The notes below the pieces were generated by a model. That model had not been told where the DNA came from, did not search any database, and worked only from the letters and a program-made list of their open reading frames with translations. A stretch of DNA of 64,000 bases from an uncultured Pseudomonadota bacterium (lineage in GTDB: Bacteria; Oederibacteriota; Muellerivitia; Muellerivitales; Muellerivitaceae). A program made the position numbers and the translations under genes. The stretch lies in NCBI GenBank assembly GCA_963836235.1, contig CAWIIP010000002.1, positions 1 to 64,000 on the forward strand, written 5' to 3'. This document shows, piece by piece, positions 20,973 through 36,006 of the stretch (position 1 is its first letter; every line of letters begins with the position of its first letter).

Positions 20973-21725
20973 TTAATGTTCTATGCCGCGTTTCAAGCTT
21001 TGGAGATAGTCCATTTGAGTTCCCGGAATGGCGAGATTTTTCTTATCCTCCAACCAGTCGCTATAGGCGTTATCCCGCTGAAGGTAACTTTTCGAAATAT
21101 GGATCACAAAAACCTTCATCAACTCGCCCATGCTCGAGGCGATCGTGTCGTAACTCCGGTCGTAATAGAGCTGGTTTTCGTAATAGCCGGTGAGCCGGAC
21201 CAGTTCAACGAGGGTGGAGGAGCTTTCGTTGTAAGCCTCGAAATGATAGAAGCCCCGGATCATTCCATAGGAATCGCTGAAATCGTCCCCGATGCAATGG
21301 TATTCTTTTTTCGGCGGCCCATACTTCGACCGCAGGTCCCGCCGGGCGCCTTCCAATTCCTTCAACGTGAGTTCGGTCGCTTCCAGGCATAAATTCCCGC
21401 GATAAAAAACGTATGTCTTAGGATCACCTTCCGCGATTTGCGCCGAAAAACCAGGAAAGCGCGCCGGATCGTCCTTGTTCACCTCGTGGCAATCCATTAA
21501 AAGATAATCCAATAGCCGGGCTTCCATTGGATCGACATAAAAGGTCACTTTGGAATGTTTCAAGGCGCGAAATTGCGGCAATGTCGTGTTCCATTCCGTA
21601 TCCGGGGAGCCTGCAGGGACATTCAGGCCCTTGCTATCGGGTGTGTCACAATACCCCAGTCGGGCCAAGGCAACGAGAACAGTAGCCACGGCCCACAGCC
21701 GCCACTTTTTTATTTTTTTATCCAT
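20973..21725 (-). CDS. Exported hypothetical protein
   Basis: 251-codon ORF with RBS AAGGAGG and an N-terminal signal-like segment; no family recognised. Confidence 0.7.
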   Translation of the reverse strand: MDKKIKKWRLWAVATVLVALARLGYCDTPDSKGLNVPAGSPDTEWNTTLPQFRALKHSKVTFYVDPMEARLLDYLLMDCHEVNKDDPARFPGFSAQIAEGDPKTYVFYRGNLCLEATELTLKELEGARRDLRSKYGPPKKEYHCIGDDFSDSYGMIRGFYHFEAYNESSSTLVELVRLTGYYENQLYYDRSYDTIASSMGELMKVFVIHISKSYLQRDNAYSDWLEDKKNLAIPGTQMDYLQSLKRGIEH

Positions 21726-21769
21726 CCATGCCTCCTTTGAAAGGCTTTTAACAATTAAGTGATCAACCT

Positions 21770-22444
21770 TTAAAGGTCCCCGGAAATCGCGTCCTTGGCC
21801 GCTCCCCATAGCATTTGCGGATCGGCCAAGAACCGATAATCCCGGTTAAAGAAAACGAACTGGACGATCCCCTTACGGTCGATTCCATAGACCGCAGGCA
21901 CTGGAAGCGTTTCATCGGAATTACCCGTATATTCCCTTAAGTGAACTCCCATTTTTTTCAGGACATCCTCGTCCGCACGATAGGCTAAGCCAAACCGCCG
22001 GGCGATATCCATGTTCTTATCGGTAAAGAGGGTAAAATCGACGTTATCTTTTTTATAAGTTTCTAAAATTTTTGACGGCTGATCCGGCGTGACCGCCGCC
22101 ACTTGGTACCCCAATTCCGCCAAACGGGGCTCCAGTTTGGCTAAATCGCCCAATTGGGAATTCGAGTAGGGGGACCATCCTCCTTGGTAAAAAACAAGGA
22201 TGGTCGGCTTTTGGTGGATGAAAGTTTCAAAATCGACGGTTTTTCCATCCATCGTCACGAGCGCGCCATAAGCCGCTTCATCGCCCGCCGAACGGGGCTG
22301 GGTGCGTCCAGCCTTCTCCGCTACCCTTTCTTGATCCTCCCGCCACCACCACCCATCACCGTCCCGGGCGAAAGCCGTAAAGCCCGCTCCCTCCAAAATA
22401 AACAGCAATAAAAAATGGAATAAAAAAAAATTTTTCCGAATCAT
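21770..22444 (-). CDS. Exported peroxiredoxin-like (AhpC/TSA) protein with CxxC replaced by SxxS
   Basis: LVFYQGGWSPYSN in place of FYRGGWCPYCN; also A..FGLAY, LPVPAVY.ID..G.V, DYR. ATG overlaps the upstream TGA. Confidence 0.8.
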   Translation of the reverse strand: MIRKNFFLFHFLLLFILEGAGFTAFARDGDGWWWREDQERVAEKAGRTQPRSAGDEAAYGALVTMDGKTVDFETFIHQKPTILVFYQGGWSPYSNSQLGDLAKLEPRLAELGYQVAAVTPDQPSKILETYKKDNVDFTLFTDKNMDIARRFGLAYRADEDVLKKMGVHLREYTGNSDETLPVPAVYGIDRKGIVQFVFFNRDYRFLADPQMLWGAAKDAISGDL

Positions 22445-22680
22445 CGACGCCCCCGCTTCAACTTCCTTTTTCCTCTCCATTTCATGGGTCCGCAGGCCAC
22501 GGGCTTGGCCTCCAAACCTTTCATCCCCTCTTCCCGGTAGGCAGCTTTCCACCGCCGGACACTTCTTCTTTTCGCGCCAACCTCAAGGGCGACTTGGGTC
22601 AGGTTGAAGCCCTCCAACACCATCTCGATGGCCCGATGGCGGCGGCGTTCCAATTCCTTTTGACTGCCGAAAGGCCTCAT
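22441..22680 (-). mobile_element. IS630-type transposase N-terminal HTH only (remnant or domesticated)
   Basis: MRPFGSQKELERRRHRAIEMV.EG..LTQVA..VG..RRSVRRWK.AY.E.G..GL.AKP matches IS630 N-termini; no DDE domain follows. Confidence 0.7.
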
Positions 22681-22713
22681 GCCGCGACTCCAAACCGGTG
22701 AATTTAACCATCC

Positions 22714-22980
22714 CTATACACCCGAACTCCTTTGAAAAAACCCCCGGACTTCCAGGCAAGCTTCCTCGGCATCGTCGCCCTGGAAGTTGAACAGTAATTC
22801 CATTCCCCTGGCCGCCCCCAGCGAGATCAAGCCGATGATGCTCTTGGCGTTCGCGCTTCGGGGCCCGTTGTGGACAGTGACCTCGCACTTGTACCGGCTG
22901 ACTAATAGGACCAACTGGGCGGCGGACCTCAGGTGAAGGCCCAACGCGTCGGGTACAATAACCTTTTCGGCGATGATCAT
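22714..22980 (-). CDS. ptsH: HPr-family phosphocarrier protein (canonical)
   Basis: GLHLRSAA (His15/Arg17), ANAKSIIGLISLGAARG (Ser46), GDDAEEA; RBS GAGGAG. Confidence 0.88.
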   Translation of the reverse strand: MIIAEKVIVPDALGLHLRSAAQLVLLVSRYKCEVTVHNGPRSANAKSIIGLISLGAARGMELLFNFQGDDAEEACLEVRGFFQRSSGV

Positions 22981-23051
22981 TCGGCTCCTCTCTCTTCGCG
23001 CGTGGTGCGACATGATTTCAACCCGTCCCTTTTTCAGCCCACCGAGGAATG

Positions 23052-23705
23052 TTACGTTTTGGCCTCGTCCAACTTGCGGACGATAAAGAGACTAGCCGTC
23101 CCTTCCACCGCCAGTTTCACCAGCAGCCGCTTCACGTTTTTCCTTGATTCCAGCAAAGCCTTGCGCATAAACACCAATTGGTCGGTCAATTCCCTTTCCT
23201 CGCCGAAAACCTCAATAGCCCTTTCGATCAGTTTTAGCATTTCTTCCTGGAACGCGGCCTCATTTTGGAGGGTTTCCCCGAAACCGCGATCCGGGTTTTC
23301 CCCAGGCAATTCAAGGGCAACCGGGACGCCCATTCTTTCGCCTAAACCAACCCGCAGGTCCCGGTAATCCTTTTTGGCCAGGCACAAAAGACCCCAAAGG
23401 TCATCCACGGAACTTTCGTCGTCAGGCACAGCCGCCCCCGCCAGGTGCAGGACACGCTGATGCGCTATTTCCAGCATCTGGAAAAGAATAGCCGTCCGGC
23501 GAAGCTGGACTTTGCTGATGTGGGCCTTGGTGTTCAGCAATTCCTTGACCACACCGAGCATTTCCCCGCACTGTTCCAAGAGGGCGCGGTTGGTTTGCCC
23601 GTCCCGCGGGCTGGCGCTCAGCGCGTGGGCGGCCAAATCCTTCATGCCCCCCTCAAGGCGTTCGGAAGTTTCGATCATTTGGTAAATTGTGAAATAAAAA
23701 TTCAT
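23052..23705 (-). CDS. Hypothetical all-helical cytoplasmic protein
   Basis: 217 aa from ATG 23705 with RBS GGAGG; amphipathic helices; no family recognised. Confidence 0.7.
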   Translation of the reverse strand: MNFYFTIYQMIETSERLEGGMKDLAAHALSASPRDGQTNRALLEQCGEMLGVVKELLNTKAHISKVQLRRTAILFQMLEIAHQRVLHLAGAAVPDDESSVDDLWGLLCLAKKDYRDLRVGLGERMGVPVALELPGENPDRGFGETLQNEAAFQEEMLKLIERAIEVFGEERELTDQLVFMRKALLESRKNVKRLLVKLAVEGTASLFIVRKLDEAKT

Positions 23706-23757
23706 TTTTTCCTCCAATAGTTTTTTCGAGCAAACACAAAAACGGACCGGGACGGCC

Positions 23758-23940
23758 TTAATTTCGCAGATGCCCTTTGCCACCCGAATGCCGCTCAAGA
23801 CGTAGTCCGTTTTCCTTTTGATCCATTTGGAAACAATCGAAACAGTCCACAATGTGATCGGTGATTCTTTCCCAATCCTCCTCCGGCAATTTCCCGAGCA
23901 TATAATCTTTGTATTTCTTGTTCACTTCATCGCAATTCAT
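23758..23940 (-). CDS. Stand-alone zf-HC2 (ZAS anti-sigma-type zinc finger) protein
   Basis: MNC.E......DY..G.L......I.DHIVDCFDC (HxxxCxxC); RBS AAGGAGG; only 60 aa and no TM. Confidence 0.8.
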   Translation of the reverse strand: MNCDEVNKKYKDYMLGKLPEEDWERITDHIVDCFDCFQMDQKENGLRLERHSGGKGHLRN

Positions 23941-23986
23941 GGAAATCCTCCTTTTGGTGCCGACGGTTTAAAAAATCTTCCGCCCT

Positions 23987-24256
23987 TTAGTTCCCCCGGG
24001 TGATAAACCGGCCCATACTGGAATTCCGGATGGATTCTAAGGCCGCCTTTTCGTCGCTTCCCTTCAGGCTGACGACTACCCTAGATAAATCAGGACGAAT
24101 TAAAGAAACGACCTCCAGCAGTTTTTTCCCGTCGATCGTTATTTCATCGTCACGGATCTTGATATGGCAGTGAAACTTCCGGGCGATGCGCAACAAGTCG
24201 GTCAACGCCCAGGGCGGAAGCCCCGGATTTTTTTGAAGCGTAATTTTTTTGGACAT
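23987..24256 (-). CDS. Divergent HPr-like protein lacking His15 and Ser46
   Basis: MSKKITLQKNPGLPPWALTDLLRIARKFHCHIKI...IDGKKLLEVVSL...LKGSDEKAALESI: HPr pattern with GLH->GLP and KS->KK; RBS AAGGAG. Confidence 0.72.
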   Translation of the reverse strand: MSKKITLQKNPGLPPWALTDLLRIARKFHCHIKIRDDEITIDGKKLLEVVSLIRPDLSRVVVSLKGSDEKAALESIRNSSMGRFITRGN

Positions 24257-24359
24257 TTCGTCTCCTTCTCCATCGGGAATAAATAAAAAAATGGAATTTC
24301 TGGGTTTGGGCGTGCAGAAACAATCATCCAAGGGGATGATCAAAATTTCGGAGAAAATG

Positions 24360-24716
24360 TCAGATGCGTAAGGGAATTGGACCGGCGGAAGAAATATCTG
24401 CTTTCCCGAAAGCGGCAGGGACCGCCATCGCCGTCGTCCTTGAAAAGGAAACGGTTTTTGGGAAATTCGAGGACTTGCAAATATCGGACTTGGGCTTCGA
24501 GGTTTTTTCCTTGGCGTCCTGAGTCAGGCAATTAAACCCACGCAAAACCTTTCCGAACGACAGGTGGCTGTTGCGGTCAATGGACCCGTTTGAATCCGAG
24601 AAAAAAGGATTGGCATGGCCCATCAAATAGACAAACTGCCGACCCACCAAGGGAATCAGCATGGCCACCACTAAAAAAGCCATTAGGTTTTGGCGGAAGC
24701 GATTAATCCGAAACAT
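24360..24716 (-). CDS. Signal-anchored small protein ending in LRI (leader A)
   Basis: 118 aa, basic N-terminus plus hydrophobic segment, ends SSAGPIPLRI*; paralog of 27231..27593. Confidence 0.7.
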   Translation of the reverse strand: MFRINRFRQNLMAFLVVAMLIPLVGRQFVYLMGHANPFFSDSNGSIDRNSHLSFGKVLRGFNCLTQDAKEKTSKPKSDICKSSNFPKTVSFSRTTAMAVPAAFGKADISSAGPIPLRI

Positions 24717-24722
24717 ATTTTT

Positions 24723-24751
24723 AAATTACTCTCCTCATAGGTAAAGTTCAA
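24723..24751 (-). promoter_or_regulatory. Sigma70-type promoter, predicted leaderless transcript
   Basis: TTGAAC-N17-TAATTT-N6-ATG(24716). Confidence 0.55.
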
Positions 24752-24865
24752 GCCTTCCTTTCAGCGTGGGAAAATGCAAAGTAAATAAGCCCAAGAAATG
24801 GGTGGATTAATTCAATTCCAACCCTGCCTTTAATTCACTGGAAGGCCGCAATCGGCGGATCCCGG

Positions 24866-26206
24866 TCAACCCTTCGGCATATCCCTTAGCGGTTTTCCAT
24901 CCGCTTTGAAGGTTTCAACCGATCCATCCCGGAGCGTCAATTGGATTTTTAATCCCTGTCCCGATCCGGTGAACCGCACCCCTTGTACTTCGGTATCGAG
25001 GAAAATGGGCTTGGCCGACTTTTTTTCCCTATCCACTAAAAAGGCGTCACCGCTGTCCCCCACCAGCTTCACGGTGTGGCGGTTGTCATCGTTCTGGAAG
25101 ACAATCGCCCTGTCCATATCCGCTTGGGCCTGGTGATCAGGAGATTCTTGGAAGCCATTGGGCTCTTCTGGTCGACCAGTGGAGACCGACGAAAAGTTGT
25201 CCCCGGTTTGGCCGCTATCCTGGTCTTCGGACAGCCCATTATCGTAATTGGCTTGTGGGTCAGTGCCATTATCCGTTGACTGACTATTGTTGTAACCGCC
25301 GTCTCCATTAGAGGAGACATATTGCTCGTTCTCGTAAATATAGACCATGTTCGTTGCTGGATTGGGCCAATTCCAACATCCATTGTCCCAATAGTCCCAA
25401 CAGCCGTACCAGGGGTCATTCCACCAAAACAAACCGCCATAGTACTGGGTCCAAAAACAACTTCCACCGCCGTACCATCCATACCAATTGCAGCCAAAAC
25501 GGTCGCAGTAATTGCAATAGTTCCATCCACCGTAGTTATGCCAATAATAATGGCCCGGGTTGTTCTGCGCCGCACGGTTGAAACCATTGATCTGGGAACG
25601 GAAATTCCCGTTCCCGGTGATGGAGTTCATTTGGTTCCGCACAAAACCTGAATTCATCTGGTGGGGTGAGAGCGTCGAGGCGGAAAGATGCTGCCCATTG
25701 GCCCCCCGAGTAGGCATCTGCGCCGTGGAATGCCTCATACTTCCGGGAAGTGAGGACGAGCCGTTTAACCGGCCGGAAGAAAAACCCCGGCTGTTGGATG
25801 AAGTGGTGGGATGAACCGAGTCATTGAAATGATGAAGGCCCGTAGAACGGTTCCCATTAGAACGATACCCACCGTTGTTTTGGCGAAAACCGTTGTAGTT
25901 TCCATAAGCTCTGTTAAAAGAATGGTTTTGCCTGTTCCAATACCCGCCGTTGCCTTGGCGGTAATAGCCATAGGCTCGGTTGCCGCCATAATAACGGTTT
26001 CCCCCAAAACTGCGGTTGTTAGACTGGAAAGAAAAATTCCCACGTCCCCCTCCAAAGTTTCCACCCCATCCACCGCCACTACGGTCGCCGCCGCCGAAAC
26101 CGCCCCCTCCTCCGCCACGGGCACCACCGCCTCCGCCACCGTGTGAAGGTAAAGCCGAGGCTGGGAACAACAAAGCCATCGCGAAAACCGCTATTATCTT
26201 TTTCAT
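24866..26206 (-). CDS. Secreted Gly/Asn/Ser/Arg low-complexity protein with Trp/Tyr/Cys-rich domain (paralog 1)
   Basis: Signal peptide, poly-Gly, LHHFN, YYWH.YGGWNYC.Y.DRFGCNWYGW...FWTQYYG..WW, VYIYEN, and a C-terminal VKLVGDSGDAFL..KPIFL domain. Confidence 0.8.
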   Translation of the reverse strand: MKKIIAVFAMALLFPASALPSHGGGGGGARGGGGGGFGGGDRSGGGWGGNFGGGRGNFSFQSNNRSFGGNRYYGGNRAYGYYRQGNGGYWNRQNHSFNRAYGNYNGFRQNNGGYRSNGNRSTGLHHFNDSVHPTTSSNSRGFSSGRLNGSSSLPGSMRHSTAQMPTRGANGQHLSASTLSPHQMNSGFVRNQMNSITGNGNFRSQINGFNRAAQNNPGHYYWHNYGGWNYCNYCDRFGCNWYGWYGGGSCFWTQYYGGLFWWNDPWYGCWDYWDNGCWNWPNPATNMVYIYENEQYVSSNGDGGYNNSQSTDNGTDPQANYDNGLSEDQDSGQTGDNFSSVSTGRPEEPNGFQESPDHQAQADMDRAIVFQNDDNRHTVKLVGDSGDAFLVDREKKSAKPIFLDTEVQGVRFTGSGQGLKIQLTLRDGSVETFKADGKPLRDMPKG

Positions 26207-26261
26207 GTGGCACCACCTTTAAGGATTGGGCCACTCGTACCTTACGGTCTCAATCCCCCTG

Positions 26262-26297
26262 CTATTATTTAGACGTTTCCACCAGTTAAAAAAGGAC
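26262..26297 (-). promoter_or_regulatory. Putative ECF-sigma promoter (copy 1)
   Basis: Minus strand GGTCCTTTTTT...AACGTCTAAATAATAG; shared with 34489-34524. Confidence 0.45.
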
Positions 26298-26427
26298 CGT
26301 TTAAAACCTAACCAAAACTTGCCGGCATTCCAAAAAAATTTCAAACCCCTTGGCAAAGTGGGGGCGCCTAAATACGCCCCCGATTTCGCCCCAGGGACCC
26401 AGGCCCCCGGAAGAACAAATGAAATAA

Positions 26428-26649
26428 TTACTTGGTACCCGAGGCAGTAGGCGTCGCTTCGGTCGATTTATTCATTTTCTTTGTCGACTTTTTCTTTGCG
26501 TGCTTTTTGACCTTTTTGTGCCCCATCTTCTTGGTCGGCGTCGAACTGGCGCTGGCCGGGGTCAAAGAGGCTGCCGTTCCTTGAGCCATCGCCAAACTGG
26601 CGGTGGTCAAGAAAGACAAAGCCATCAATATGGCAAATAACCTTTTCAT
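26428..26649 (-). CDS. Small secreted Lys/His-rich disordered protein (Asr-like composition)
   Basis: Signal peptide with AMA cleavage site, then TPTKKMGHKKVKKHAKKKSTKK; RBS AAGGAG. Confidence 0.8.
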   Translation of the reverse strand: MKRLFAILMALSFLTTASLAMAQGTAASLTPASASSTPTKKMGHKKVKKHAKKKSTKKMNKSTEATPTASGTK

Positions 26650-26800
26650 AACTTTCTCCTTTTTCTTTTTAATATAATTAACGGCGGAGGCCCGCCCTGG
26701 GATCGGGCGGGTTCAACCTTCCTTTTTCAATTCGCCGCTTCCATTTACCCGCTTCATCAACGGGTTTGGATAAGTCTCCAAACCTGCCTTGGTGGGACCT

Positions 26801-27094
26801 TTACGCCCCGGAAACAACTCTGTCTTCCGTCGCTTCGCATTCGAAAACACCTTTGGCGAAATAACGAATAACCATCATGGCTTCATCCTCGTCCCTCCCC
26901 TTGGCGGTTATTTCCAAACGCGCTCCCTTCACCTCGTTTAAAGCAATCAATTCCAAGAATATCTTTGCGTTGGCCACCAACCTTTTCTTTCGAATGCCGA
27001 TTTGACAAACGAATTGGTTGGCGATCCTTGAAAGTTCGGCCATTTCCCACATATGCAATCCAGCCTTGATCGAGATAACAATTTTTTTGGACAT
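26801..27094 (-). CDS. Divergent HPr-like protein (His15 kept, Arg17->Trp, Ser46->Ile)
   Basis: MSKKIVISIKAGLHMWEMAELSRIANQFVCQI...ANAKIFLELIAL...LEITAKGRDEDEAM; RBS GGAGG. Confidence 0.8.
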   Translation of the reverse strand: MSKKIVISIKAGLHMWEMAELSRIANQFVCQIGIRKKRLVANAKIFLELIALNEVKGARLEITAKGRDEDEAMMVIRYFAKGVFECEATEDRVVSGA

Positions 27095-27230
27095 TGGGCT
27101 TCCTCCGGCGCTTAGTTGTTTTCATAAAATGGTTTAATCCATGGATTGAAACGACGAAAATTCTTTGGGGAAAACCCCCAAAAATATAACCGACCCCAAG
27201 GGGATGGTTACGGATGATTTGGATTAAATT

Positions 27231-27593
27231 TTAAATTCTGAGTGAAAGGGGCCAAATGGAAGATGAATCTTTCAAGAACCAGCGCGCAAAAGCATCCAAT
27301 CTCGGGGTTCGCTCCGCGATAACCGATGTTTTTAATTTCGAGATTTGGAAGAAGTTGGAATTGAATTTTCCACCTTTATTGGATATTTCCTGGGCTTGGA
27401 CATTGATTTGATGCATCAGGGTTCTACTGCCGTTGTGATGGGAACCCGAATTATTCGAAATTCCTGATTCGGGATAAAAGGGTAACGCCGCCAGTTTGAC
27501 CGCAAGCAATTGCTTTCCGGCAAAGGAAAAGAGCGTGGCCGCGATCAAACCGATGAACAAGGAGCGGTGAATCGATCTCAATAGTTTTAACAT
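27231..27593 (-). CDS. Signal-anchored small protein ending in LRI (leader B)
   Basis: 120 aa; aligns with leader A (G[RK]Q, A.PF[FY].[DE]S, SH, D.SS..P..LRI*). Confidence 0.7.
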   Translation of the reverse strand: MLKLLRSIHRSLFIGLIAATLFSFAGKQLLAVKLAALPFYPESGISNNSGSHHNGSRTLMHQINVQAQEISNKGGKFNSNFFQISKLKTSVIAERTPRLDAFARWFLKDSSSIWPLSLRI

Positions 27594-27599
27594 GCCTTT

Positions 27600-27628
27600 A
27601 CGCTAGCCCTTTCATCAAGCAACGTCAA
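27600..27628 (-). promoter_or_regulatory. Sigma70-type promoter, predicted leaderless transcript
   Basis: TTGACG-N17-TAGCGT-N6-ATG(27593), the same geometry as at leader A. Confidence 0.6.
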
Positions 27629-27847
27629 GGTCCCTTGAATGAGTACGAAGCCTGGAATTTAATGGAATTTCGTCATAACCCCCGGTTAAAAAAGATGGCT
27701 GTTTTAATTAAACCATAGCCATTCAAAACCCTTTTGGAAATATTCGCAAAAACGAAAAATATCTCCCGTTTTTCTTTTGGGCCCGGAACTCCAATAGGCG
27801 CATCAAGTACCAACCGATATCGGGCCATACCGGGATGGAGTCATATC

Positions 27848-29236
27848 CTAGGGCATAGCCTCCACTGTGCCGCCGTTTAACAAATATTGGCTTCCGGCGG
27901 CTCTCAATAAGCGGGTCTTGGCCTCGGCCGATTGGATATCCAAGTTGACCATATCCTTCAAGGCCTGCTGAAGGTCTGAAAGCGGCCCAAGAAAGGACAA
28001 ATACCTTTGTTTGGCCAGGAGCGCCGCTTTCGCGGTCTTCTCCTGTTCTTCCACCAGCACTTTCAGTTCCTCCGTGGAGGCTTCCACTTCTTCCCCGTAT
28101 TTGATGTTCAAATCATCCACCGTTAATTGGTCCTGCGCGGCTTCCGACGTGCGGGCCAGGGCTTCGGCCCGGGCGCCCTTTTCCTCCGCGTCAATCCGAA
28201 ATCCCTCAAAAAGCGGGAAACTGACGCCGACAAAAACCGAATAATCCTGGGCTTGTTCCAGCCGGGTGTCGCTCAAATAGCCGGCGCTTCCCGCCACTTC
28301 CAAAACCGGCAGGTTTTCAGCTGAGTACGCAGCCGCGGTTTCATTGGCGGATTTGGTTTCGAATTCCGCCTGGGTGACCAGGGGGCTTTTCCCCGGCGCC
28401 GTCAGGCCCAGGCTGGTTTCAGGCAAGTCGGATGGGGCAGTACAGGAAAAGGACCGGGGGTCCATTCCCGTCAAAAGGGCCAATCGTTGAAGGCCCGCCT
28501 GGTATTGGCGGGCGAAGTCATCCGCCCGCAGTGAGGCGTCCGCCAGTTGGTCCTCGATCAAAAGGCCCTGCACTTCCGAATACTGTCCGTTTCTCACGAA
28601 CCGTTTGACGGTGTCCCGGATGCCCGTCAATTCGTCTTCCAATTTTTTCCAGGCGTCCCGGTCACCCCGCAGGCGAGAAGTCTCCAGGTAGGCGTTCAGG
28701 ACCTGCTGGTCCGCCAGTTCGGTCTCGAATTTGGTCCTTTCCCGACTGGCGTCATAAGCGTAATGGGCCGATGAGGATTGATGCCAAACCGACAAATCCA
28801 CCAAATCCCACTTGGCGTAGGCGCCCGCCGCCGGTCCCTTGCGGTAGGGAGAAGCCACCATTCCGGGAAAACTGTCCAAACCGGAAGTCCCAAACCCGGA
28901 GGAAGAGCCCGGAAACCCGCTGCTTTCCACCGCGTCCAAACCCAAGGAGGGATAAAATCCAGAATCCGCCTGCCGGGAAAATTCGCGTGATTCTTCCTCG
29001 CGGGAAGCCGCAGCCTTGACCAGGGGACTGTGTTTTTCCCCTAAACGCAAAGCCTCGCTCAGGGATAGCTCTTTCGGTGGCGTATCCTGGGCGTAAACCG
29101 GCCCCAAGAGGGTGACTAAAAACAAAAACCCCATGAGAAAAATTGTTTTTTTCGGCTTGAAAGGCAGGTTCCCCAGCCCCCACTCGCCATACCGGCCTTT
29201 TTCCGTCCCGAATAATGCCTTTGGAATATTTTTCAT
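27848..29236 (-). CDS. TolC-family outer membrane efflux protein
   Basis: LSLSEALRLG..HSPLVKAA, A.SGFYPSL, VGVSFPLFEGFR, A..RY; translationally coupled to the RND gene. Confidence 0.88.
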   Translation of the reverse strand: MKNIPKALFGTEKGRYGEWGLGNLPFKPKKTIFLMGFLFLVTLLGPVYAQDTPPKELSLSEALRLGEKHSPLVKAAASREEESREFSRQADSGFYPSLGLDAVESSGFPGSSSGFGTSGLDSFPGMVASPYRKGPAAGAYAKWDLVDLSVWHQSSSAHYAYDASRERTKFETELADQQVLNAYLETSRLRGDRDAWKKLEDELTGIRDTVKRFVRNGQYSEVQGLLIEDQLADASLRADDFARQYQAGLQRLALLTGMDPRSFSCTAPSDLPETSLGLTAPGKSPLVTQAEFETKSANETAAAYSAENLPVLEVAGSAGYLSDTRLEQAQDYSVFVGVSFPLFEGFRIDAEEKGARAEALARTSEAAQDQLTVDDLNIKYGEEVEASTEELKVLVEEQEKTAKAALLAKQRYLSFLGPLSDLQQALKDMVNLDIQSAEAKTRLLRAAGSQYLLNGGTVEAMP

Positions 29237-32200
29237 TTTCCCTCCTCCCGATAATAGGCGCTTTGGGGATCCAGTGGATCCAGTGAAGCCGTATAGGTCG
29301 GCTTGTTCCGGTGAACCAGGGCGTAAATGATCGGCATGATCAGCAGGGTTGTCACCGTGGACCCAAAGAGCCCCCCGATCACCGCCCGGGCCAAAGGCGC
29401 CGTCTGCTGGCCGCTATCGCTTAAACCCAAAGCCATGGGGATCATGCCGACGATCATCGCAATGGCCGTCATCAACACGGGCCGCAAACGGCTTTGCGCC
29501 CCGTACACCGCCGATTCCCAGGAATGTTTCCCTGACCGTCTCGTTAAATCCGCAAAGGTCACTAAGAGGATCGAGTTTGCCACCGATACCCCGACCGACA
29601 TGATGGTGCCCATGAAGGATTCAATATTGATGGTGGATCCGCTGAAATAGAGGGCGATCAAGGCCCCCGAAAGAACCGCGGGCACGTTGGAAATAACGAT
29701 CAAGGCGATGGGAAACGACTCGAAGCTTCCCGCCAAAAGCAGCAGGATGACCACGACGGCGAAGCCCAGCCCCGCGGAAAGGCCTGTTGTCATTTCCTGG
29801 AGGGTCGCGATTTGGCCGCGCACCCAAACCCGGACCCCCTTGGGAAGCGTCGCCTGGATGGGCTCCAATATTTTGTCGATTCGTTCCGCGGCGTGGCCCA
29901 GGTCCAGGCCATATAAGTTGGCGGTGACGGTCGCCATGCGGGCCAGGTTGTAACGGTCATACTCGGCCACCTCGGTACCCGGCTGCACTTGGGCGAAAGC
30001 CGAGAGTGGAATGGCCCCCGTATTGACGGGAATCGGCACCTTTTTCAAATCCTCGATGGATTTGATGTCATTGGAGGGAACTTCCACTTGAACCTGGTAA
30101 TTCACGCCGTCCTTGGGGTCTTCCCAATAATTGGGAAGGGTGAAGCGGCTGGAAGAAGTGACCGGAACAAGGGCCCTTCCGACATCGGTGACATGCACGC
30201 CCCTTAACCCGGCTTTTTCCCGGTCGACGTTCACGTTAAGGGTCGGGTAATCCCATGGCTGTCCGTATTGCAGGTCCCGGATGGCCGGTAGTTTCGAGAG
30301 GGCCTCTTTGATTTCTTCCGCCACGGCGCGGTCCTTATTCAGGTTCTGGCCGTTGACGTCCACGTCGATAAGCGTCGGGGACCCGGCGCTCATGACCTTG
30401 TCAATGAGGCCGCTGGCCTCGAAGGAGACCGACACATCGGGCAGTTCTTTTTGAAAAACGGACCTTAGCTTTTCCTTCAACGCGGCCGTCGAAACCTTGG
30501 AATCCTTCTTGAAAGCCACGTCCAAAACGGCTTCCTGCGGCCCGGAACTCCAGAGGAAGATAGTATTGATGGCATATTGGGTGGGCTGGGTACCGACATA
30601 ACCCAGGGTCGTATCCACGCTGTCCGGTCCCGCCGTTTGCTTGATCAGGTCGATCACTTTCAGGAGAATTTGTTCGGTTTTGTCGACATAGGTTCCGGTT
30701 GGGGCGCGGACCCGAAGCTGAAGCTCGTGGCTTTCAACCCTCGGGAAGATTTCCCGCCCGATATGGGTCCCCAGGAACCCGATGATCAGGATCGTTCCTA
30801 AAGCGTAGGCCGAGAGGAAAAACGGACGATGGTTGTAAATGAACTCAAGCATTTTACCGTGGACCTTTTTCATGATATCTAGGGCCGTTTCCCGGCCATG
30901 AACCTGGGGATGTTCCTTTTTCAGCAGCCATGTGGCGAGGATCGGAACCAGGGTCATGGAGAGAAAAAAGGCCCAAATGATGGAGAAGCCAACCGAAAGG
31001 GTGAGGGGCACGAACAGGGCCTTGGACATTCCTCCCATGAAAAAGGCCGGAATGAACACGGCCAAGATACAAAGCATGGTGAGGAAGGCCGGGTTGAATA
31101 TTTCGCTGGTCCCGTTAATGGCCGCGGTGGCAAGCGGTTCCCCCTTGCCCAAGCGCACATGGATGTTCTCGATGGTGATGGTGCTTTCGTCCACCAAAAT
31201 GCCGATGGCCAGGGCCAAACCGCCCAGGGTCATGATGTTAATGGTCTGCCCAGCGACCTTCAAGCTGAGGATGGCGCCCATCAAGGCCAGGGGTATGTTG
31301 ATCACGACGATCAGGGCGCTTCGCCAATCTTGGAGGAACAGAAGCACCATGAGCCCCGTCAAGAGGGCGCCCATGACCCCCTCGAAGGAAAGGGACTTGA
31401 TGGAATCCTTGACCACGCCCGATTGGTCGAATTCAAAACTGACCTTGATGTCGTCCGGCAGGACGTCCTGGAAAAGCTTCATGTTATTTTTGATCTCGTT
31501 GACGACGGTGAGGGTGGAGGAGTCGGAACGCTTGATCACCGGAAGATAAATGGTTCGATGGCCGTTGACGAGGGCGTAGCCCACCTGGATGTCGGTGGAA
31601 TCCTTTACGACACCGATGTCGCCGACAAAAACCGTGGGATAGGTCCCCAGACGGATGGGCACCTTCAATAAATCGTCGATATTTTCGACAATGGAATTTA
31701 GGGGAACCGCGGGATATTGGTCCCCAATCCGAATCTTCCCCGATGGCTCGATCTGGTTGGCCTTGGCCAGGGCTTCCACTACATCCTCGGGCGATAGGTT
31801 GTACTGTTGAAGTTTTTTCGGATCAACTTCGATGACAATGGCCCGTGGACTGGAACCGAAGGAGTCCGAAACCAGGAGCCCAGGCAGGGTGGCCACGAGG
31901 GGGCGCACATAGTTAAGGGCATAATCCTCGATATCCCCCAGGCTCCGGGCGGGGCTGGAAAAAACCAGGTCTCCCACCGGAAGGTTGCCGCTATCAAAGC
32001 GGAGGATGAGGGGCGGAAGGGTTCCCGGCGGCATGTTTTTCAACGCCCGGGTCGAACGAGATACGACTTCCCCCATCGCTGCGGACATGTCCGTGTCCGG
32101 GTGGAACAGAAGCTTCAAAAGGGTGACTTCACCGATACTCTTGGACTCAATATGCTCGATTCCGTTGACGTAGGAAAACTGTTTTTCAAAGTTGTAGGCG

Positions 32201-32460
32201 ATAAAGCTTTCCATTTGTTTCGGATCCATCCCACCATAAGGTTCCACCACAAAAATACTGGGTGTTCCCAGGCTTGGAAAAATATCGAACTGCATATGAA
32301 ACAAAGAGGTGACAGCCCCCAACGCGATGGCGATCGAGAGCACCACCATCGTGATAGGCCTGCGCATGGCTAATTGGACCATTCCCACCCGAAATATCTG
32401 TTGGAGAACGGGGCTTTGAGTTTTAATTTTTTTACTAGTTTTCAGTCGCGGGTAAGTCAT
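29233..32460 (-). CDS. RND efflux permease (AcrB/CusA superfamily)
   Basis: 1075 aa; RRPITMVV, DIFP, LGGLALAIGILVDES, GVSVANSILLV, RLRPVLMT, APLARAVIGGL. Confidence 0.95.
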   Translation of the reverse strand: MTYPRLKTSKKIKTQSPVLQQIFRVGMVQLAMRRPITMVVLSIAIALGAVTSLFHMQFDIFPSLGTPSIFVVEPYGGMDPKQMESFIAYNFEKQFSYVNGIEHIESKSIGEVTLLKLLFHPDTDMSAAMGEVVSRSTRALKNMPPGTLPPLILRFDSGNLPVGDLVFSSPARSLGDIEDYALNYVRPLVATLPGLLVSDSFGSSPRAIVIEVDPKKLQQYNLSPEDVVEALAKANQIEPSGKIRIGDQYPAVPLNSIVENIDDLLKVPIRLGTYPTVFVGDIGVVKDSTDIQVGYALVNGHRTIYLPVIKRSDSSTLTVVNEIKNNMKLFQDVLPDDIKVSFEFDQSGVVKDSIKSLSFEGVMGALLTGLMVLLFLQDWRSALIVVINIPLALMGAILSLKVAGQTINIMTLGGLALAIGILVDESTITIENIHVRLGKGEPLATAAINGTSEIFNPAFLTMLCILAVFIPAFFMGGMSKALFVPLTLSVGFSIIWAFFLSMTLVPILATWLLKKEHPQVHGRETALDIMKKVHGKMLEFIYNHRPFFLSAYALGTILIIGFLGTHIGREIFPRVESHELQLRVRAPTGTYVDKTEQILLKVIDLIKQTAGPDSVDTTLGYVGTQPTQYAINTIFLWSSGPQEAVLDVAFKKDSKVSTAALKEKLRSVFQKELPDVSVSFEASGLIDKVMSAGSPTLIDVDVNGQNLNKDRAVAEEIKEALSKLPAIRDLQYGQPWDYPTLNVNVDREKAGLRGVHVTDVGRALVPVTSSSRFTLPNYWEDPKDGVNYQVQVEVPSNDIKSIEDLKKVPIPVNTGAIPLSAFAQVQPGTEVAEYDRYNLARMATVTANLYGLDLGHAAERIDKILEPIQATLPKGVRVWVRGQIATLQEMTTGLSAGLGFAVVVILLLLAGSFESFPIALIVISNVPAVLSGALIALYFSGSTINIESFMGTIMSVGVSVANSILLVTFADLTRRSGKHSWESAVYGAQSRLRPVLMTAIAMIVGMIPMALGLSDSGQQTAPLARAVIGGLFGSTVTTLLIMPIIYALVHRNKPTYTASLDPLDPQSAYYREEGK

Positions 32461-32606
32461 TGGGATCCTCCGAAATCTCGGCCGCGCCTTGACCGGTCAA
32501 TAGGCGTGATGGCGCACTTTTCCCCATCCGGATGGGTTGGAACCGGTGGCGAAAGGCCAGCGGCACCCCCAACCTTATCAGGGAGAACTATTTTCACGAG
32601 ATTCCT

Positions 32607-32954
32607 TTAAATGCGAAGGACGACCGTACGGAGGGAAGGCACGGCGTAAACAGCTTTGGGGGTTTGGCCCCAAGCCCCAAAAAAGGGCGTTAATTCAGCC
32701 AGATCAATATAAGAACGCAAGGCCATCACCGGCACGGCCTGTTGTTTGTCTTCCCGATTAAAGGAACAGCGAAGGGTAGCGTGGGTGACCGCGAAAGGTG
32801 ACTTTTCTTCCAAGCGGTTAGTGGAAGAGGAGCTGCTTTGGACGGGTTCCCAAGAAGTCGGTACCAGCCGGTTGACCAAGCTGGGCCTCAAGGAAAAAAG
32901 AAGGACGCTCAAAACCAGTAACAGCCTGGTGGATATTTTAAGGACTTCCCGCAT
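32607..32954 (-). CDS. Signal-anchored small protein ending in LRI (leader C)
   Basis: 115 aa, hydrophobic N-terminus, ends PSLRTVVLRI*; directly upstream of the RND gene. Confidence 0.68.
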   Translation of the reverse strand: MREVLKISTRLLLVLSVLLFSLRPSLVNRLVPTSWEPVQSSSSSTNRLEEKSPFAVTHATLRCSFNREDKQQAVPVMALRSYIDLAELTPFFGAWGQTPKAVYAVPSLRTVVLRI

Positions 32955-33089
32955 GTTCTACTTCCCGCATGAGTGGACTTCTAAAATCGAGCGAAATTAT
33001 GGAACCGTCCCGGCCCCTTTTCAACCCCTATCCGAAATATCCCATCCCATTAGAGCGAAAGTGGCCAAAAAGGCTTGCGCCGGGCGCTT

Positions 33090-34433
33090 TTAAGTCTGGT
33101 CCCCTTCCACGTCCACTGATTGCCCGGTTTTCGCGGGGGCCTTTTCATTGAGTTGTTTGCCCTGAGCGTCGAATTTCTCATAGGACCCGTCGTTCAGGAT
33201 TAATTTAATTTCCATGGCCCCTTTGCTGTTCTTAGAAAACTTCACGTCCTTGACGTCGCTTTCCAGGAAAAGAGGCTTAAAGGAGTTTTTCGCCGAATCA
33301 TAAAGAAAGGCGTCGCCCTCTCCCCCGACAATCTTCACCATACGCGTTTTGTCTTGGCTGGGGAATTCGACGATGTCCTTGGACAGGTTTGAATTCTCTT
33401 CCATGTTGGATGACCCGGCCACATTGCCGTTCGTCGGAGGTTGGTTATAACTATTCCCGCCCGCGTTCGCGTCGGCCTGGTCGGTAGGCGCATAGTTGCC
33501 ATTTTCATAAATGTAAACCGTGTTCGTTCCCGGATCCTGCCAATACCACTCGTTACCCCACCAATAGCACCAACGGGCTCCCCAGGAATCGTACCACCAC
33601 CAATTATCTCCATAATATTGGGTCCAAAAGAAAGAATCACCCCAGCACCAGCCAAACCAGTTACAACCCCAGCGATCGAAATAGTGGCAATAGTTCCAGC
33701 CACCCCAAGAATGCCAATAGTAATTGTTCCGGAGGACATCGGAGCGGTTAAGGGATGCGATCCTACCTGAGAAAGCAGTGCCGCGGGAAATGGAGGCCAT
33801 ATGACTTGTCACCAGGGATGAATTCATCCGGCTGGGAGAAACCAGGGAAGCTGAAAAAGCCTTGCCCGACGGTCCCGTGCTTGGAAGCTTTACTACTGAG
33901 TGTTGAAGAGAATGCGGAAGCAAGGAACTATGGCTCAGCGGACGAGGAGAACCAGAAACATAGGAATGGGTAAAAGCTCCCGTTGAAGTGTTGAAGTGAT
34001 GAAGATTTGTTGAATTGGAATGGAAGTTAGCGCCGTTCGAGCCATGCGCGCCATAGGAACGGTTGAAATGACGGACTTGGCCGTATCCGTACGATCCATA
34101 AGTACCCCGTTGGTAATAGCCGTTGCCCCCCGAACGGAAATTTCCCCCGTTGGAACGGGAAGAATTGGAATAAGCGTGGTTATTGTTGTTGGACGAATGA
34201 TCCGAAGAATCGAAAGAACCGGCGTTTGACCCGGAAGAACTGTCGCCCCCACCGCGATCACTCCCGCCACTGCCACCTCGGTCATCACCACCGCTCCAAC
34301 CACCGCCTCCACCTCCACGGTCTCCCCCGCCGCTCCAGCCGCCTCCCCCGCCGCCAGCCCCCGCATCGCGAGCCAAAATTGCTCCGGCCGGAAGGGATAA
34401 TAGGATTGCCAATAACCAGGTTATTTTCTTCAT
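33090..34433 (-). CDS. Secreted Gly/Ser/Asn low-complexity protein with Trp/Tyr/Cys-rich domain (paralog 2)
   Basis: Same architecture and motifs as 24866..26206 (LHHFN, YYWHSWGGWNYCHYFDRWGCNWFGW, FWTQYYG, VYIYEN, VKIVGGEGDAFL..KPLFL). Confidence 0.8.
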   Translation of the reverse strand: MKKITWLLAILLSLPAGAILARDAGAGGGGGGWSGGGDRGGGGGGWSGGDDRGGSGGSDRGGGDSSSGSNAGSFDSSDHSSNNNNHAYSNSSRSNGGNFRSGGNGYYQRGTYGSYGYGQVRHFNRSYGAHGSNGANFHSNSTNLHHFNTSTGAFTHSYVSGSPRPLSHSSLLPHSLQHSVVKLPSTGPSGKAFSASLVSPSRMNSSLVTSHMASISRGTAFSGRIASLNRSDVLRNNYYWHSWGGWNYCHYFDRWGCNWFGWCWGDSFFWTQYYGDNWWWYDSWGARWCYWWGNEWYWQDPGTNTVYIYENGNYAPTDQADANAGGNSYNQPPTNGNVAGSSNMEENSNLSKDIVEFPSQDKTRMVKIVGGEGDAFLYDSAKNSFKPLFLESDVKDVKFSKNSKGAMEIKLILNDGSYEKFDAQGKQLNEKAPAKTGQSVDVEGDQT

Positions 34434-34488
34434 TTCGCACCATCCTTGGGTTTAAACCCATCCGTTTGAAAATGATATTGAAGTGCTT

Positions 34489-34524
34489 CTATTGTTTAGA
34501 CGTTCTAGCCCATTAAAAGGATAC
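34489..34524 (-). promoter_or_regulatory. Putative ECF-sigma promoter (copy 2)
   Basis: Minus strand GTATCCTTTT...AACGTCTAAACAATAG. Confidence 0.45.
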
Positions 34525-34681
34525 TCTCTTTTTCAAACCATATTTGACGCTGATTTCCGGTGGTTTTTTCGTTCAAATTTGAAAAAGATTCGGGATGGCG
34601 GGAGTGAACAGCAGATTCCAGACTTCTTCGACCTATTTCACAACATGTTTCGTGTTATGGACAAAGAGTATCAGAGTATGC

Positions 34682-35287
34682 TTATTCTGAATTTTTAAAA
34701 CAAAGCAAACGCCAATAACCGAAAGGTTGGATAGGAATATCCACCGCTCCCCTCATCCCCGCTCGGTCCAAAAACTCGTCCAAGTAAAAGAGCGGTTCAA
34801 AACCCAATAGGGGGGCGAAGGGACGCAAAGCCCCTTCAATAAGGCTCATGAAGGAGCCCTTTTGGCTGAAATGATTCAGGATGTAAATGTCTCCGCCCCG
34901 GCGGGTCACTCTTTTCATCTCTCGGATCATCGCGACCGGATCGGGCGTGACTGAAGCCACGAACATGGCGATGCTTTTGTCGAAACAATGGTCCGGGAAA
35001 TCCAGCTTTTGGGCGTCCATCAAATGGAGTTGGACGTTGTTCAGTCTCAAAAGATCAACGCGTTGTTGGGCCTGTTCCAGCATTTCAGCGGTTAGGTCGA
35101 TACCGGTGACATCGACATTCGAGGGATAAAGCGGCAAAGACAACCCGGTTCCAATCCCAATTTCCAATACCTGGTGTCCGTCTTTAAGCTCCATTTGCCA
35201 CACGGCCCTGGAACGTCCCGGATTCAGCGCAAAAACATAAACACGCGCAAAACGTTTATAGCTTGATAAAACCGAAGTGTTATCCAT
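34682..35287 (-). CDS. Class I SAM methyltransferase, PmtA-like (phospholipid N-methyltransferase)
   Basis: VLEIGIGTGLSLPLYP, GIDL..EML, MDAQKLDFPD, SVTPDP, ILNHF. Confidence 0.8.
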   Translation of the reverse strand: MDNTSVLSSYKRFARVYVFALNPGRSRAVWQMELKDGHQVLEIGIGTGLSLPLYPSNVDVTGIDLTAEMLEQAQQRVDLLRLNNVQLHLMDAQKLDFPDHCFDKSIAMFVASVTPDPVAMIREMKRVTRRGGDIYILNHFSQKGSFMSLIEGALRPFAPLLGFEPLFYLDEFLDRAGMRGAVDIPIQPFGYWRLLCFKNSE

Positions 35288-35467
35288 CTTTGTCCAGTCT
35301 CTAAGACTTTCAGGATTTAGAATCGCATGTATTTTACAACCAGCCCGTTCAGAAAGCGAAGCCAGAAACAACCCTTTTTGATCTTTCAATTTTACGAATC
35401 TGTAACGCGAATCACTCTCACATTTTAGGACAATTCAACCCATCAGCCCGACGCATTTACTTGTTTT

Positions 35468-35983
35468 TCAACCCATATGCTCCCGAAGCCATTGGATTTG
35501 CCCCGTATGATGCCGTCCGTGCCAGGCATAAATGCAAAGCGCCCGAGAAAGGGGAATAGTACGCCCATCCGGATGGATGAAGGTCCGGGTATATTGTTCA
35601 TCCGTCATTGATCGAAGAAGGCGAACCCATCTTTGATGGACGCCTTCCAGCAAGAGAAGCGATGGTTCTACCGAACCTGTTTTAGCCTCAGTTAAATCCG
35701 ACCAAAGGTTTTCGTCGTAAGCCTTGATCGTGGGCTTTTCCTCGGTCAAAGTCCATTTGAACCGGATATAACTGTGCACATGGCTGTCGGCAAGGTGGTT
35801 GACGATTTGCCGCATATTCCAGTTCTTATAAAGTGTTCCCATTTGCTCGTCGGATAATTCCGAGACCGCCTGCCGCATCAGGGAGGGGGCCCGCTCGATT
35901 TGCGCAATAAGTTCCTCCCTGCGCCGGGCATCGACATCTTCCCCGACTTGAACCGGACCAACTGGAAATTTGGGCGCTTCCAT
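35468..35983 (-). CDS. YfiT/BstA (DinB superfamily) thiol S-transferase
   Basis: WNMRQIVNHLADSH, RFKWTLTEEKPTIKAYDE, YAWHGRHH. Confidence 0.9.
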   Translation of the reverse strand: MEAPKFPVGPVQVGEDVDARRREELIAQIERAPSLMRQAVSELSDEQMGTLYKNWNMRQIVNHLADSHVHSYIRFKWTLTEEKPTIKAYDENLWSDLTEAKTGSVEPSLLLLEGVHQRWVRLLRSMTDEQYTRTFIHPDGRTIPLSRALCIYAWHGRHHTGQIQWLREHMG

Positions 35984-36006
35984 ACTTTTCCTTAATTTCA
36001 GAATGG

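Follow-up and report, generated by a model that had tools for sequence, protein, structure and literature searches.

A lineage-specific family of short open reading frames ending in Leu-Arg-Ile: candidate export-coupled leaders in an uncultured bacterium of the Oederibacteriota

The window analyzed here is a DNA stretch of 64,000 nucleotides (nt) (positions 1–64,000 of the forward strand of contig CAWIIP010000002.1, GenBank assembly GCA_963836235.1) from an uncultured bacterium of the family Muellerivitaceae, phylum Oederibacteriota. Its minus strand carries three short open reading frames (ORFs), A, B and C, which belong to a family of proteins ending in Leu-Arg-Ile (LRI). The end is invariant, the stop codons and the last sense codons of the family are biased, its members are located ahead of other genes, and in many of them the Shine-Dalgarno (SD) region of the next gene has a complementary stretch just past the stop. 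Judging from these sequence features, it is on balance probable, if modestly so, that A, B and C are cis-acting, export-coupled leaders of a lineage-specific family, which would pause ribosomes at termination. A class of LRI-stop leaders had been proposed in an earlier note on this DNA, and a good part of that reading, which we consider the best at hand and which the comparative data strengthen considerably, stands: a real, unannotated gene family, stops confined to those read by release factor 2 (RF2), the leader position, the pairing with the SD, and a Cys-containing subtype associated with CusCBA-like operons.

ORF A (24360–24716, minus strand; 118 amino acids (aa), end SAGPIPLRI, stop TGA), ORF B (27231–27593, minus; 120 aa, end IWPLSLRI, stop TAA) and ORF C (32607–32954, minus; 115 aa, end LRTVVLRI, stop TAA) match the family profile with E-values of 2.2 × 10−26, 4.2 × 10−22 and 5 × 10−14, respectively. 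Their sizes, LRI ends and final codons were reproduced as first described; in A, the terminal codons TTA CGC ATC TGA (24360–24371, minus) specify the invariant Leu-Arg-Ile and the stop. The amino acid identity of A is 28% to B and 14% to C. Kyte–Doolittle analysis located the previously noticed N-terminal hydrophobic segment in all three proteins, one in each, preceded by a net positive charge: the hydrophobic 15-mers of A, B and C start at residues 11, 12 and 7, have means of 2.7, 2.1 and 2.1, and lie about 93–94 residues from the C-terminus. In A, the segment spans residues 11–25 (LMAFLVVAMLIPLVG; 24642–24686, minus), with a net charge of +3 before it. None of the three proteins has a CXXC or CxxxC metal-binding motif.

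Two further paralogs, D and E, are encoded by the same genome, bringing the number of copies to five. Copy D (contig C2, 1910656–1911006) is located directly ahead of an operon for OEP, CusB-like (HMBD) and CusA/CzcA proteins, and copy E (contig C2, 518197–518523) ahead of small ORFs of no known family. Of 15,832 ORFs in this genome with a minimum length of 60 aa, 11 end in LRI, five of them being the members of the family; the ending is thus more frequent than expected by chance. A profile built from the five paralogs found matches in 22 of the 24 genomes searched within the taxonomic family, and in none of 16 genomes of more distant lineages. With a 33-sequence profile, matches were obtained in 28 of 31 same-family genomes, including all 17 of high quality, with E-values down to 1 × 10−33, while the family was absent at E ≤ 1 × 10−5 from 68 genomes representing 22 other families of the phylum. 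All but one of the 72 distinct ORF matches in the loci fetched end in LRI, the exception being an unrelated protein of 476 aa. The genome search for signal-anchored, LRI-ending ORFs suggested in the earlier note thus yielded 71 members, whose downstream genes were tabulated. In addition, 89 matches were obtained by a profile search among 1.84 billion representative proteins and 19 by a word-indexed search; the LRI end is present in 99 of the 101 proteins from these two database searches, the exceptions being one protein that ends in LKI and an unrelated one of 706 aa. A single-protein locus search led to one locus, a duplicate of a relative already in the set.

The only name given to the relatives by the source databases is "hypothetical protein", and Pfam and NCBIfam scans of the five paralogs returned no meaningful match; one NCBIfam hit (E-value, 0.082; 11.8 bits against a cut-off of 314) was dismissed as chance. 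The few proteins found by the word-indexed search, all of them hypothetical, together with an SD-like 4-mer upstream of the start in only 44 of the 71 members, are what could be expected if the ORFs were not genes and their LRI ends and hydrophobic starts had arisen by chance in non-coding DNA. We regard this as extremely improbable, since full-length frames without internal stops are retained in 28 of the 31 related genomes, the matches in the library of 1.8 billion proteins represent 89 clusters, and the amino acid end is invariant over varied codons. As for the 706-aa library match (P0054), nine stretches of it match profile positions 12–67, which correspond to the hydrophobic/Cys-rich part, and it has no LRI end; repeats of a similar module may make up this protein.

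In the 33-sequence alignment, whose members share 9–74% identity with A, the L, R and I of the end are the sole invariant positions. The consensus of the last 14 residues, derived from 153 pooled sequences, is S-S-S-S-[PS]-[PS]-x-x-[PFS]-L-[VIP]-L-R-I, with Pro found at position −9 in 92 and at position −10 in 64 of the 153 tails, and some members have S-P-P at −11 to −9. The proteins of the family are 97–123 aa in length. In the 71 members, the hydrophobic 15-mer starts at about residue 11 (median Kyte–Doolittle value, 2.33), is preceded by a net charge of at least +2 in 62 cases, and is separated from the C-terminus by a median distance of 93 aa. The middle of the protein, described earlier as poorly conserved, is so between subtypes but not within them. 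In a 32-sequence alignment of the D subtype, P23, C24, C27 and C49 are invariant (P-C-x-x-C) and C48 and C59 nearly so, while the A type has a single-Cys amphipathic motif and the E type an R-E-A-P-D motif. AlphaFold2 modelling of A with the family alignment gave a mean predicted local distance difference test score (pLDDT) of 61, and a confident helix was predicted for residues 3–34 only.

Across the 71 members, the last sense codons include all six codons for Leu, all six for Arg, and ATC or ATT for Ile. The use of every Leu and Arg synonym at an invariant LRI indicates that the constraint acts on the peptide, in agreement with what had been deduced from the window copies. At the same time, the choice among synonyms is skewed, and the skew is confined to the final positions. 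AGA, which makes up 5.5% of the Arg codons in neighboring genes and 6.9% of those in the ORF bodies, is the final Arg codon in 39 of 71 members (55%); TTA is the final Leu codon in 27 of 71 (8.6% and 11.9%, respectively), and ATA never encodes the final Ile (0/71; 8% and 12.5%). The stop codons of the family are 52 TGA, 19 TAA and no TAG. The 113 downstream genes of the same loci that served as controls have 42 TGA, 56 TAA and 13 TAG, giving a naive binomial p of 1.8 × 10−9, a value that overstates independence because the genomes are kin; among the long ORFs of the genome, 506 TGA, 734 TAA and 214 TAG were counted. With TAG missing, all stops of the family are readable by RF2, and most are UGA. 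We also considered, and rejected, RNA-level selection of the Ser/Pro-rich tail as an anti-SD inside the ORF: AGY codons account for 21% of Ser in the tail and 19% in the ORF body. As AGY is not avoided in the tail, its richness in Ser and Pro also appears to be a peptide-level feature.

These biases bear on another explanation, namely that the ORFs are regulatory leaders, yet regulation comes from the spacer RNA being remodelled as the leader is translated or exported, or from Pro-containing tails such as S-P-P, and LRI is no pausing element but a degradation signal that removes the spent peptide after its release. The C-terminal degradation signals known so far tolerate variation; LRI, by contrast, is the same in all 71 members. 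Moreover, the stop and last-codon biases point to the termination step, and the Pro content of the tail differs between subtypes. The explanation draws on the Ser/Pro-rich tail at −11 to −9, in which the S-P-P sequences match SPP-type motifs described as pause sites dependent on elongation factor P (EF-P) (PMC12407103), and on the suggestion by the authors of the CruR study that non-polar C-termini speed degradation (PMC9426467). Weighed together, these points leave it decidedly unlikely.

In many members, the first 10 nt or so past the stop form the complement of the next gene's SD region, located 76–150 nt away, with one or two hairpins in between. Examples are an E-type member, in which TGA is followed by AAATTCCTTTCGTG and the complementary stretch is ACGAAAGGAAATTCCATG, a D-type member (TGA followed by TTCATTCCTTTTGA; CAAAAGGAGTGATG) and one relative of C (TAA followed by AAAAATCTCCTGA; TCAGGAGATCACCGATG). 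For a quantitative comparison, the 18 nt past the stop were scored for duplex formation against a 25-nt SD/start window in the 63 members with a spacer of 40–200 nt, and 952 gene pairs of this genome, treated by the same procedure, served as background. The median duplex energy was −12.6 kcal/mol in the family and −6.5 kcal/mol in the background, and a value of −12 kcal/mol or lower was reached by 35 of the 63 members (14/19 of E type, 13/23 of D type, 6/17 of A/B type and 2/4 of C type) compared with 7.9% of the background pairs. Own partners pair better than permuted ones (−12.5 versus −9.4 ± 0.46 kcal/mol), and none of 5000 permutations equalled the observed value.

The flanks co-vary between subtypes (CCTTTCG/CGAAAGG, CCTTTTG/CAAAAGG, CCTTTCC/GGAAAGG and TCTCCTGA/TCAGGAGA), and the closing helix was retained by RNAalifold on 12 E-type spacers. 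Within the E type, covariation of this helix is weak, with one of nine pairs changed on both sides, because the SD side is nearly invariant; the case is therefore built on the differences between subtypes and on the comparison with the background. As known from toeprint geometry, a ribosome whose A site holds the stop codon shields roughly 10 nt of the mRNA beyond it. When this footprint was forced to be unpaired, the D and E types showed an increase in the median modelled probability of an unpaired SD/start region, from 0.26 to roughly 0.5, and a gain of at least 0.2 was obtained in 25 of 63 members compared with 5.7% of 300 background pairs.

Based on these features, a mechanism can be outlined. 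The N-terminal signal-anchor would place the variable middle, presumably the sensing part, outside the cytoplasm, and the common tail would end at UGA or UAA. Leu-Arg-Ile-tRNA in the P site would slow termination by RF2, and a ribosome waiting on the stop would cover about 10 nt of the mRNA downstream. In much of the family these nucleotides would be an anti-SD that, when free of the ribosome, closes an intergenic structure onto the next SD, so that the length of the pause would set the level of translation of the downstream gene. The fate of the exported N-terminal part, such as pulling, folding or, in the Cys-rich subtype, metal binding, may make the pause longer or shorter, by analogy with CutF, CruR and SecM. 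The export topology, the pause, the involvement of RF2 and the sensed signal are what we infer.

The position of the family members is that of leaders. All members but two, which are located at contig ends, are followed by a co-directional ORF with an SD (69 of 71), and the median spacers are 93–146 nt. The first and second ORFs downstream number 131, and the Pfam scan covered 111 of them; left out were 17 ORFs of 57–73 aa, a 79-aa ORF with an uncertain start and a truncated 63-aa ORF. Two window genes in the downstream set were taken from a separate Pfam scan, and the 68 first genes comprise 67 plus the RND (resistance-nodulation-division) pump gene behind C. Among these 68, 16 are HPr-like, 15 encode OEP, three an RND permease, two YtkA/FixH-like proteins, one a multicopper oxidase and one YdjC, while 30 have no Pfam match, several of the latter being followed by a gene for a LysM protein. 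Each of the 15 OEP genes is followed by a CusB-like adaptor gene (HlyD_D23), and HMBD was found in 13 of the 14 adaptors scanned; OEP is encoded by the second gene in three more members, and an RND permease by the second gene in one more. No Sec, YidC or SecDF proteins were found among the 68 first downstream ORFs scanned.

By eye, P-C-x-x-C is located at the end of the hydrophobic segment in 17 of the 18 OEP-linked leaders and further conserved Cys residues follow; the 18th has P-C-x-C. A multicopper oxidase gene is headed by one Cys-type leader (locus L080). Most members of the family, A, B and C included, have no CxxC and head non-metal genes, such as those for HPr-like proteins or a general RND pump. 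It is possible, and we put it forward tentatively, that the family represents modular, co-translational sensors acting across the membrane, in which swappable extracytoplasmic segments are joined to a universal arrest output, ...L-x-L-R-I plus UGA or UAA, that blocks release by RF2. The Cys cluster would then sense metals, the A-type single-Cys amphipathic and the E-type R-E-A-P-D motifs would be other such segments, and the block of RF2 would be lifted once the exported part is pulled or folded. In this way, signals from the envelope would act directly on the translation of efflux pumps and also of cytoplasmic HPr-like signalling proteins.

Several leaders may share one locus. In the relative G012 (locus L019, contig C7, 170000–189999), four LRI leaders, representing three subtypes, are packed into 12 kb, and each precedes a small operon of its own; two of them head HPr plus AHSA1-like genes, and one has a near-identical copy on another contig (locus L021). 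In the relative G020 (locus L017), an ORF of 398 aa separates two A-type leaders that lie 1.9 kb apart, and no SD-linked start is found within 250 nt of the stop of the first.

The variety of the cargo is also relevant to a different view of the family, in which its members are small trans-acting proteins, exported or anchored in the membrane, LRI-COOH is a tag for a periplasmic partner (such as a PDZ protease or a sorting factor), and the pairing reflects ordinary translational coupling, which would hold leader and cargo in balance. A signal-anchor with N-terminal positive charge would put the C-terminus outside the cytoplasm, and we take the hydrophobic-x-hydrophobic end to resemble class II PDZ ligands. 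The conservation of the middles within subtypes is in line with this view too. A precedent in the matching position is CzcI, described as a periplasmic protein that is encoded ahead of czcC and quenches the CzcCBA pump (PMC10127602). Nevertheless, the trans-acting role offers no reason for the missing TAG stops or for the rare codons AGA and TTA at the last positions only, and a function with a single partner is hard to reconcile with cargo as varied as cytoplasmic HPr-like proteins, metal and RND pumps, and a multicopper oxidase. In addition, no confident fold is predicted past the N-terminal helix, and similarity to CzcI was not detected (hhalign of the D-subtype alignment against CzcI of pMOL30; probability, 2%). 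Such a role is therefore considered unlikely.

Returning to termination-pausing leaders, a number of observations weigh against this interpretation, and the weakest link lies in the window copies themselves, in which the SD-masking geometry is incomplete or missing. The stretch CATTTTCTCC directly past the stop of A (24350–24359, minus) pairs with the SD/start of the following HPr-like gene (SD region GGAGAAGGAG, 24262–24271, minus) in the minimum-energy fold, but the duplex (−10.1 kcal/mol) is no better than in shuffled sequences (p ~0.2). A second SD-pairing stretch, GATATTTCTTCC, is located inside the ORF, about 25–36 nt before the stop; it can take the place of the post-stop stretch when the stop region is masked in the model, so that the accessibility stays at 0.26–0.27. 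For B, duplex scoring and folding of its spacer revealed no post-stop anti-SD, and the SD of the following HPr-like gene (GGAGGAAG; 27099–27106, minus) pairs in the folds with TCTTCC inside the ORF. Thus, in-ORF pyrimidine stretches of both A and B can mask the SD, and they lie outside the region covered by a ribosome at the stop. In C, the post-stop stretch GGAATCTCG (32597–32605, minus) forms a duplex of −12.4 kcal/mol, reached by none of 200 shuffles, with CGAGATTTC, the arm directly 5' of the pump SD (arm plus SD GGAGGA, 32466–32480, minus). In none of the three does the SD become much more accessible when a ribosome is modelled on the stop: its unpaired probability changes from 0.26 to 0.27 in A, from 0.32 to 0.32 in B and from 0.57 to 0.65 in C. 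As modelled, SD masking describes the metal-type (D) and E-type members well, A partially and C weakly, and is unsupported for B. The window copies may use a different read-out.

The earlier note had also pointed to a hairpin shared by A and B about 20 nt after their stops. The predicted hairpins do begin 19–20 nt past the stop, and the 11-mer they share, CATCCCCTTGG, is found in exactly two window copies (24328–24338 and 27196–27206, minus), compared with 0.09 expected from shuffles, none of 100 of which reached two. The hairpin of A (24322–24341, minus; 19–38 nt past the stop) has eight pairs and a CCTT loop, and the first hairpin past B (27187–27211, minus) also holds the 11-mer. In a same-genus relative (locus L015), the stem of the A-type hairpin is kept and the loop is changed. 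The hairpin is, however, confined to A, B and their close relatives and no hallmark of the family; the same applies to the AGP of leader A, once likened to RAGP, which is not part of the family tail consensus. These two points, together with the missing post-stop anti-SD of B and the small modelled gain in SD accessibility in A, B and C, count against the earlier reading for the three window copies.

Further points of this kind concern the family as a whole. Just 6 of 17 A/B-type members reach −12 kcal/mol, and post-stop pairing with the SD is, taken alone, also what ordinary translational coupling looks like. The middles conserved within subtypes would equally fit a mature protein with a function of its own. 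The genomes compared are kin, so that the counts and p-values overstate independence. A literature search for LRI as a C-terminal motif retrieved nothing relevant, and the arrest-peptide papers considered describe no such class; we know of no arrest peptide that uses LRI.

To our knowledge, few nascent-peptide arrest motifs of bacteria have been recognized, and very few of them act at termination. If the interpretation as leaders is true, an invariant three-residue end at a stop read by RF2 would be a new and readily testable arrest motif, carried by a gene family that is unnamed or missed by annotation pipelines. One motif placed on varied sensing segments and varied cargo would indicate that regulators diversify by sensor swapping. 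Sensing of the periplasm through a nascent chain, as in CutF and CruR, would then extend past metals to HPr-like regulators and general efflux pumps.

The region of the window that harbors A, B and C is a single long series of minus-strand genes. The statement that 100–150 nt lie between hairpin and cargo is correct as a distance from stop to start (A, 103 nt; B, 136 nt; C, 146 nt), not as one from hairpin to gene. An HPr-like gene with its ATG at 24256 (23987–24256, minus; 89 aa; Pfam PTS-HPr; E-value, 1.9 × 10−8) follows A, a second one (26801–27094, minus; 97 aa; Pfam PTS-HPr; E-value, 7.3 × 10−14) follows B, and together with the HPr gene that has the strongest Pfam match (22714–23013, minus; E-value, 2 × 10−21) three genes of this family are located within 4.5 kb. 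By eye, the HPr-like protein after A has Pro (..PGLPPWAL..) at what we take to be the usual position of the phosphorylated His, whereas the product of 22714–23013 retains G-L-H and K-S, presumably the functional residues. Two further ORFs occupy 23052–23940 (minus). The one directly behind the HPr-like gene after A (23758–23940, minus; 60 aa) contains H-x3-C-x2-C, a motif that may resemble the zinc-binding N-terminus of anti-sigma factors; ORFs of 57–70 aa are found in the matching place behind 12 other HPr-like first genes. A Lys-rich ORF (26428–26649, minus; 73 aa) lies behind the HPr-like gene that follows B.

Behind C are the genes for an RND efflux permease (29233–32460, minus; 1075 aa; Pfam ACR_tran; E-value, 2 × 10−190) and an outer-membrane efflux protein (27848–29236, minus; 462 aa; Pfam OEP; E-value, 2.1 × 10−18); among the ORFs scanned, no HlyD-family membrane-fusion gene was found between or beside them in the 27848–34433 cluster. 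Directly upstream of C and A lie two paralogous genes for secreted-looking, Gly/Asn-rich proteins, one of 447 aa (33090–34433, minus) and the other of 446 aa (24866–26206, minus). Long runs of Gly, a middle rich in Asn, Ser and Gly and a block rich in Trp and Cys characterize both products, neither of which matched a Pfam or NCBIfam model; in relatives, several A-type leaders are preceded by proteins of 398–469 aa. A promoter-like site (TTGAAA, 17 nt, CATAAT; 32996–33024, minus) upstream of C agrees with the consensus at 10 of 12 positions, a consensus match only. Past B, a second hairpin (27163–27185, minus) with a G5/C4 stem and a T-rich run resembles a terminator. Within 22500–35000, 24 terminator-like sites were found compared with 21 ± 5.4 in shuffles; since this is the chance level, attenuation by intrinsic terminators is not claimed. 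An Rfam scan of 21000–36000 at E ≤ 1 gave no matches.

Among known systems, the closest in design are the leaders CutF of Rhodobacter capsulatus and CruR of Bordetella pertussis, the latter reportedly poorly structured. According to the literature, they combine an export signal, CxxxC or CXXC, and a C-terminal Pro-rich or RAPP motif and act in cis (PMC9973294; PMC9426467), CutF by melting an SD stem-loop and CruR through Rho (PMC9973294; PMC9426467; 10.1101/2025.02.05.636593). With these proteins, as well as with DUF2946 proteins and CzcI, the LRI family shares an ORF of less than 150 aa, an N-terminal export signal (predicted here from hydrophobicity and charge) and a conserved C-terminal motif, and with CutF and CruR also Cys or His motifs in the metal-linked members. 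OEP/CusC-type and multicopper oxidase genes are described as the commonest neighbors of CutF-like proteins (PMC9973294), and the position ahead of a CusC/CzcC-type OEP, an RND pump or a multicopper oxidase is likewise common to both (PMC9973294; PMC9426467); the leader and multicopper oxidase of locus L080 mirror cutF-cutO. The spacer stem-loop shielding the SD has a predicted counterpart in the LRI family that is clear in D and E, partial in A, beside the SD in C and absent in B. The main difference is that L-R-I is located at the stop itself, while the RAPP or poly-Pro motif of CutF and CruR lies some residues upstream and LRI tails have no RAPP.

Sequence comparisons suggest that these likenesses are those of analogy, without detectable homology. 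No match to PF11162 at E ≤ 0.01 was obtained for any of the five paralogs, and hhalign against the three DUF2946-like proteins of the same genome gave probabilities of 0.2% and 1.7%. In the CzcI of pMOL30, a signal peptide and CGVC are present, and ...RAPD... lies close to the end; as for its position, small, probably exported ORFs ahead of the OEP gene of a heavy-metal RND operon are seen in 18 LRI members, including D but not A, B or C. A tblastn search of copy D against 72,556 plasmids found no relative, with one match at an E-value of 6. In a language-model neighbor search, the DUF2946/DUF6769 and CzcI clusters were the nearest named ones (score, 0.93), which is a lead only.

Arrest of the SecM type is released by pulling force. 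Such release of arrest peptides has been described (10.1101/2023.09.02.556018). SecM, MifM, VemP and RAPP-class peptides such as ApdA resemble the LRI family in having an export signal plus a C-terminal arrest element, a candidate one here, and in the melting of an SD stem-loop by the stalled ribosome, proposed here. Unlike in SecM, MifM and VemP, the cargo of the LRI family is not Sec, YidC or SecDF, and the motif is different and located at the very end of the ORF. In this last respect the family is closer to TnaC and PepNL of E. coli, the two known termination-arrest peptides of bacteria, which are reported to arrest at UGA with RF2 (PMC11890864; PMC8450073): the proposed arrest would take place at the stop codon with RF2 blocked, and all LRI stops are readable by RF2 and mostly UGA. 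TnaC and PepNL differ in being cytoplasmic peptides of 14–24 aa, tuned by Trp/Trp-tRNA, whereas the LRI ORFs have 97–123 aa and an export signal, and there is no sequence likeness between them.

The genome itself offers a direct comparison. Its contig C5 encodes three DUF2946/CruR-like leaders of 96–98 aa (loci L041, 1423–1713; L042, 1423–1713; L044, 1417–1713), which have a signal peptide, an HHH run, C-S-L-C and an end in G-R-A-P-P or G-R-S-P-P-P, the best match scoring 23.9 bits (cut-off, 23.7). ORFs of 378–404 aa lie behind two of these leaders, and in the ORF list of L041 no large co-directional ORF stands directly behind the third. Since leaders of the RAPP/RSPPP type coexist with it in the same genome, the LRI family appears to be a second, separate class of leader in this lineage and not its version of the RAPP type.

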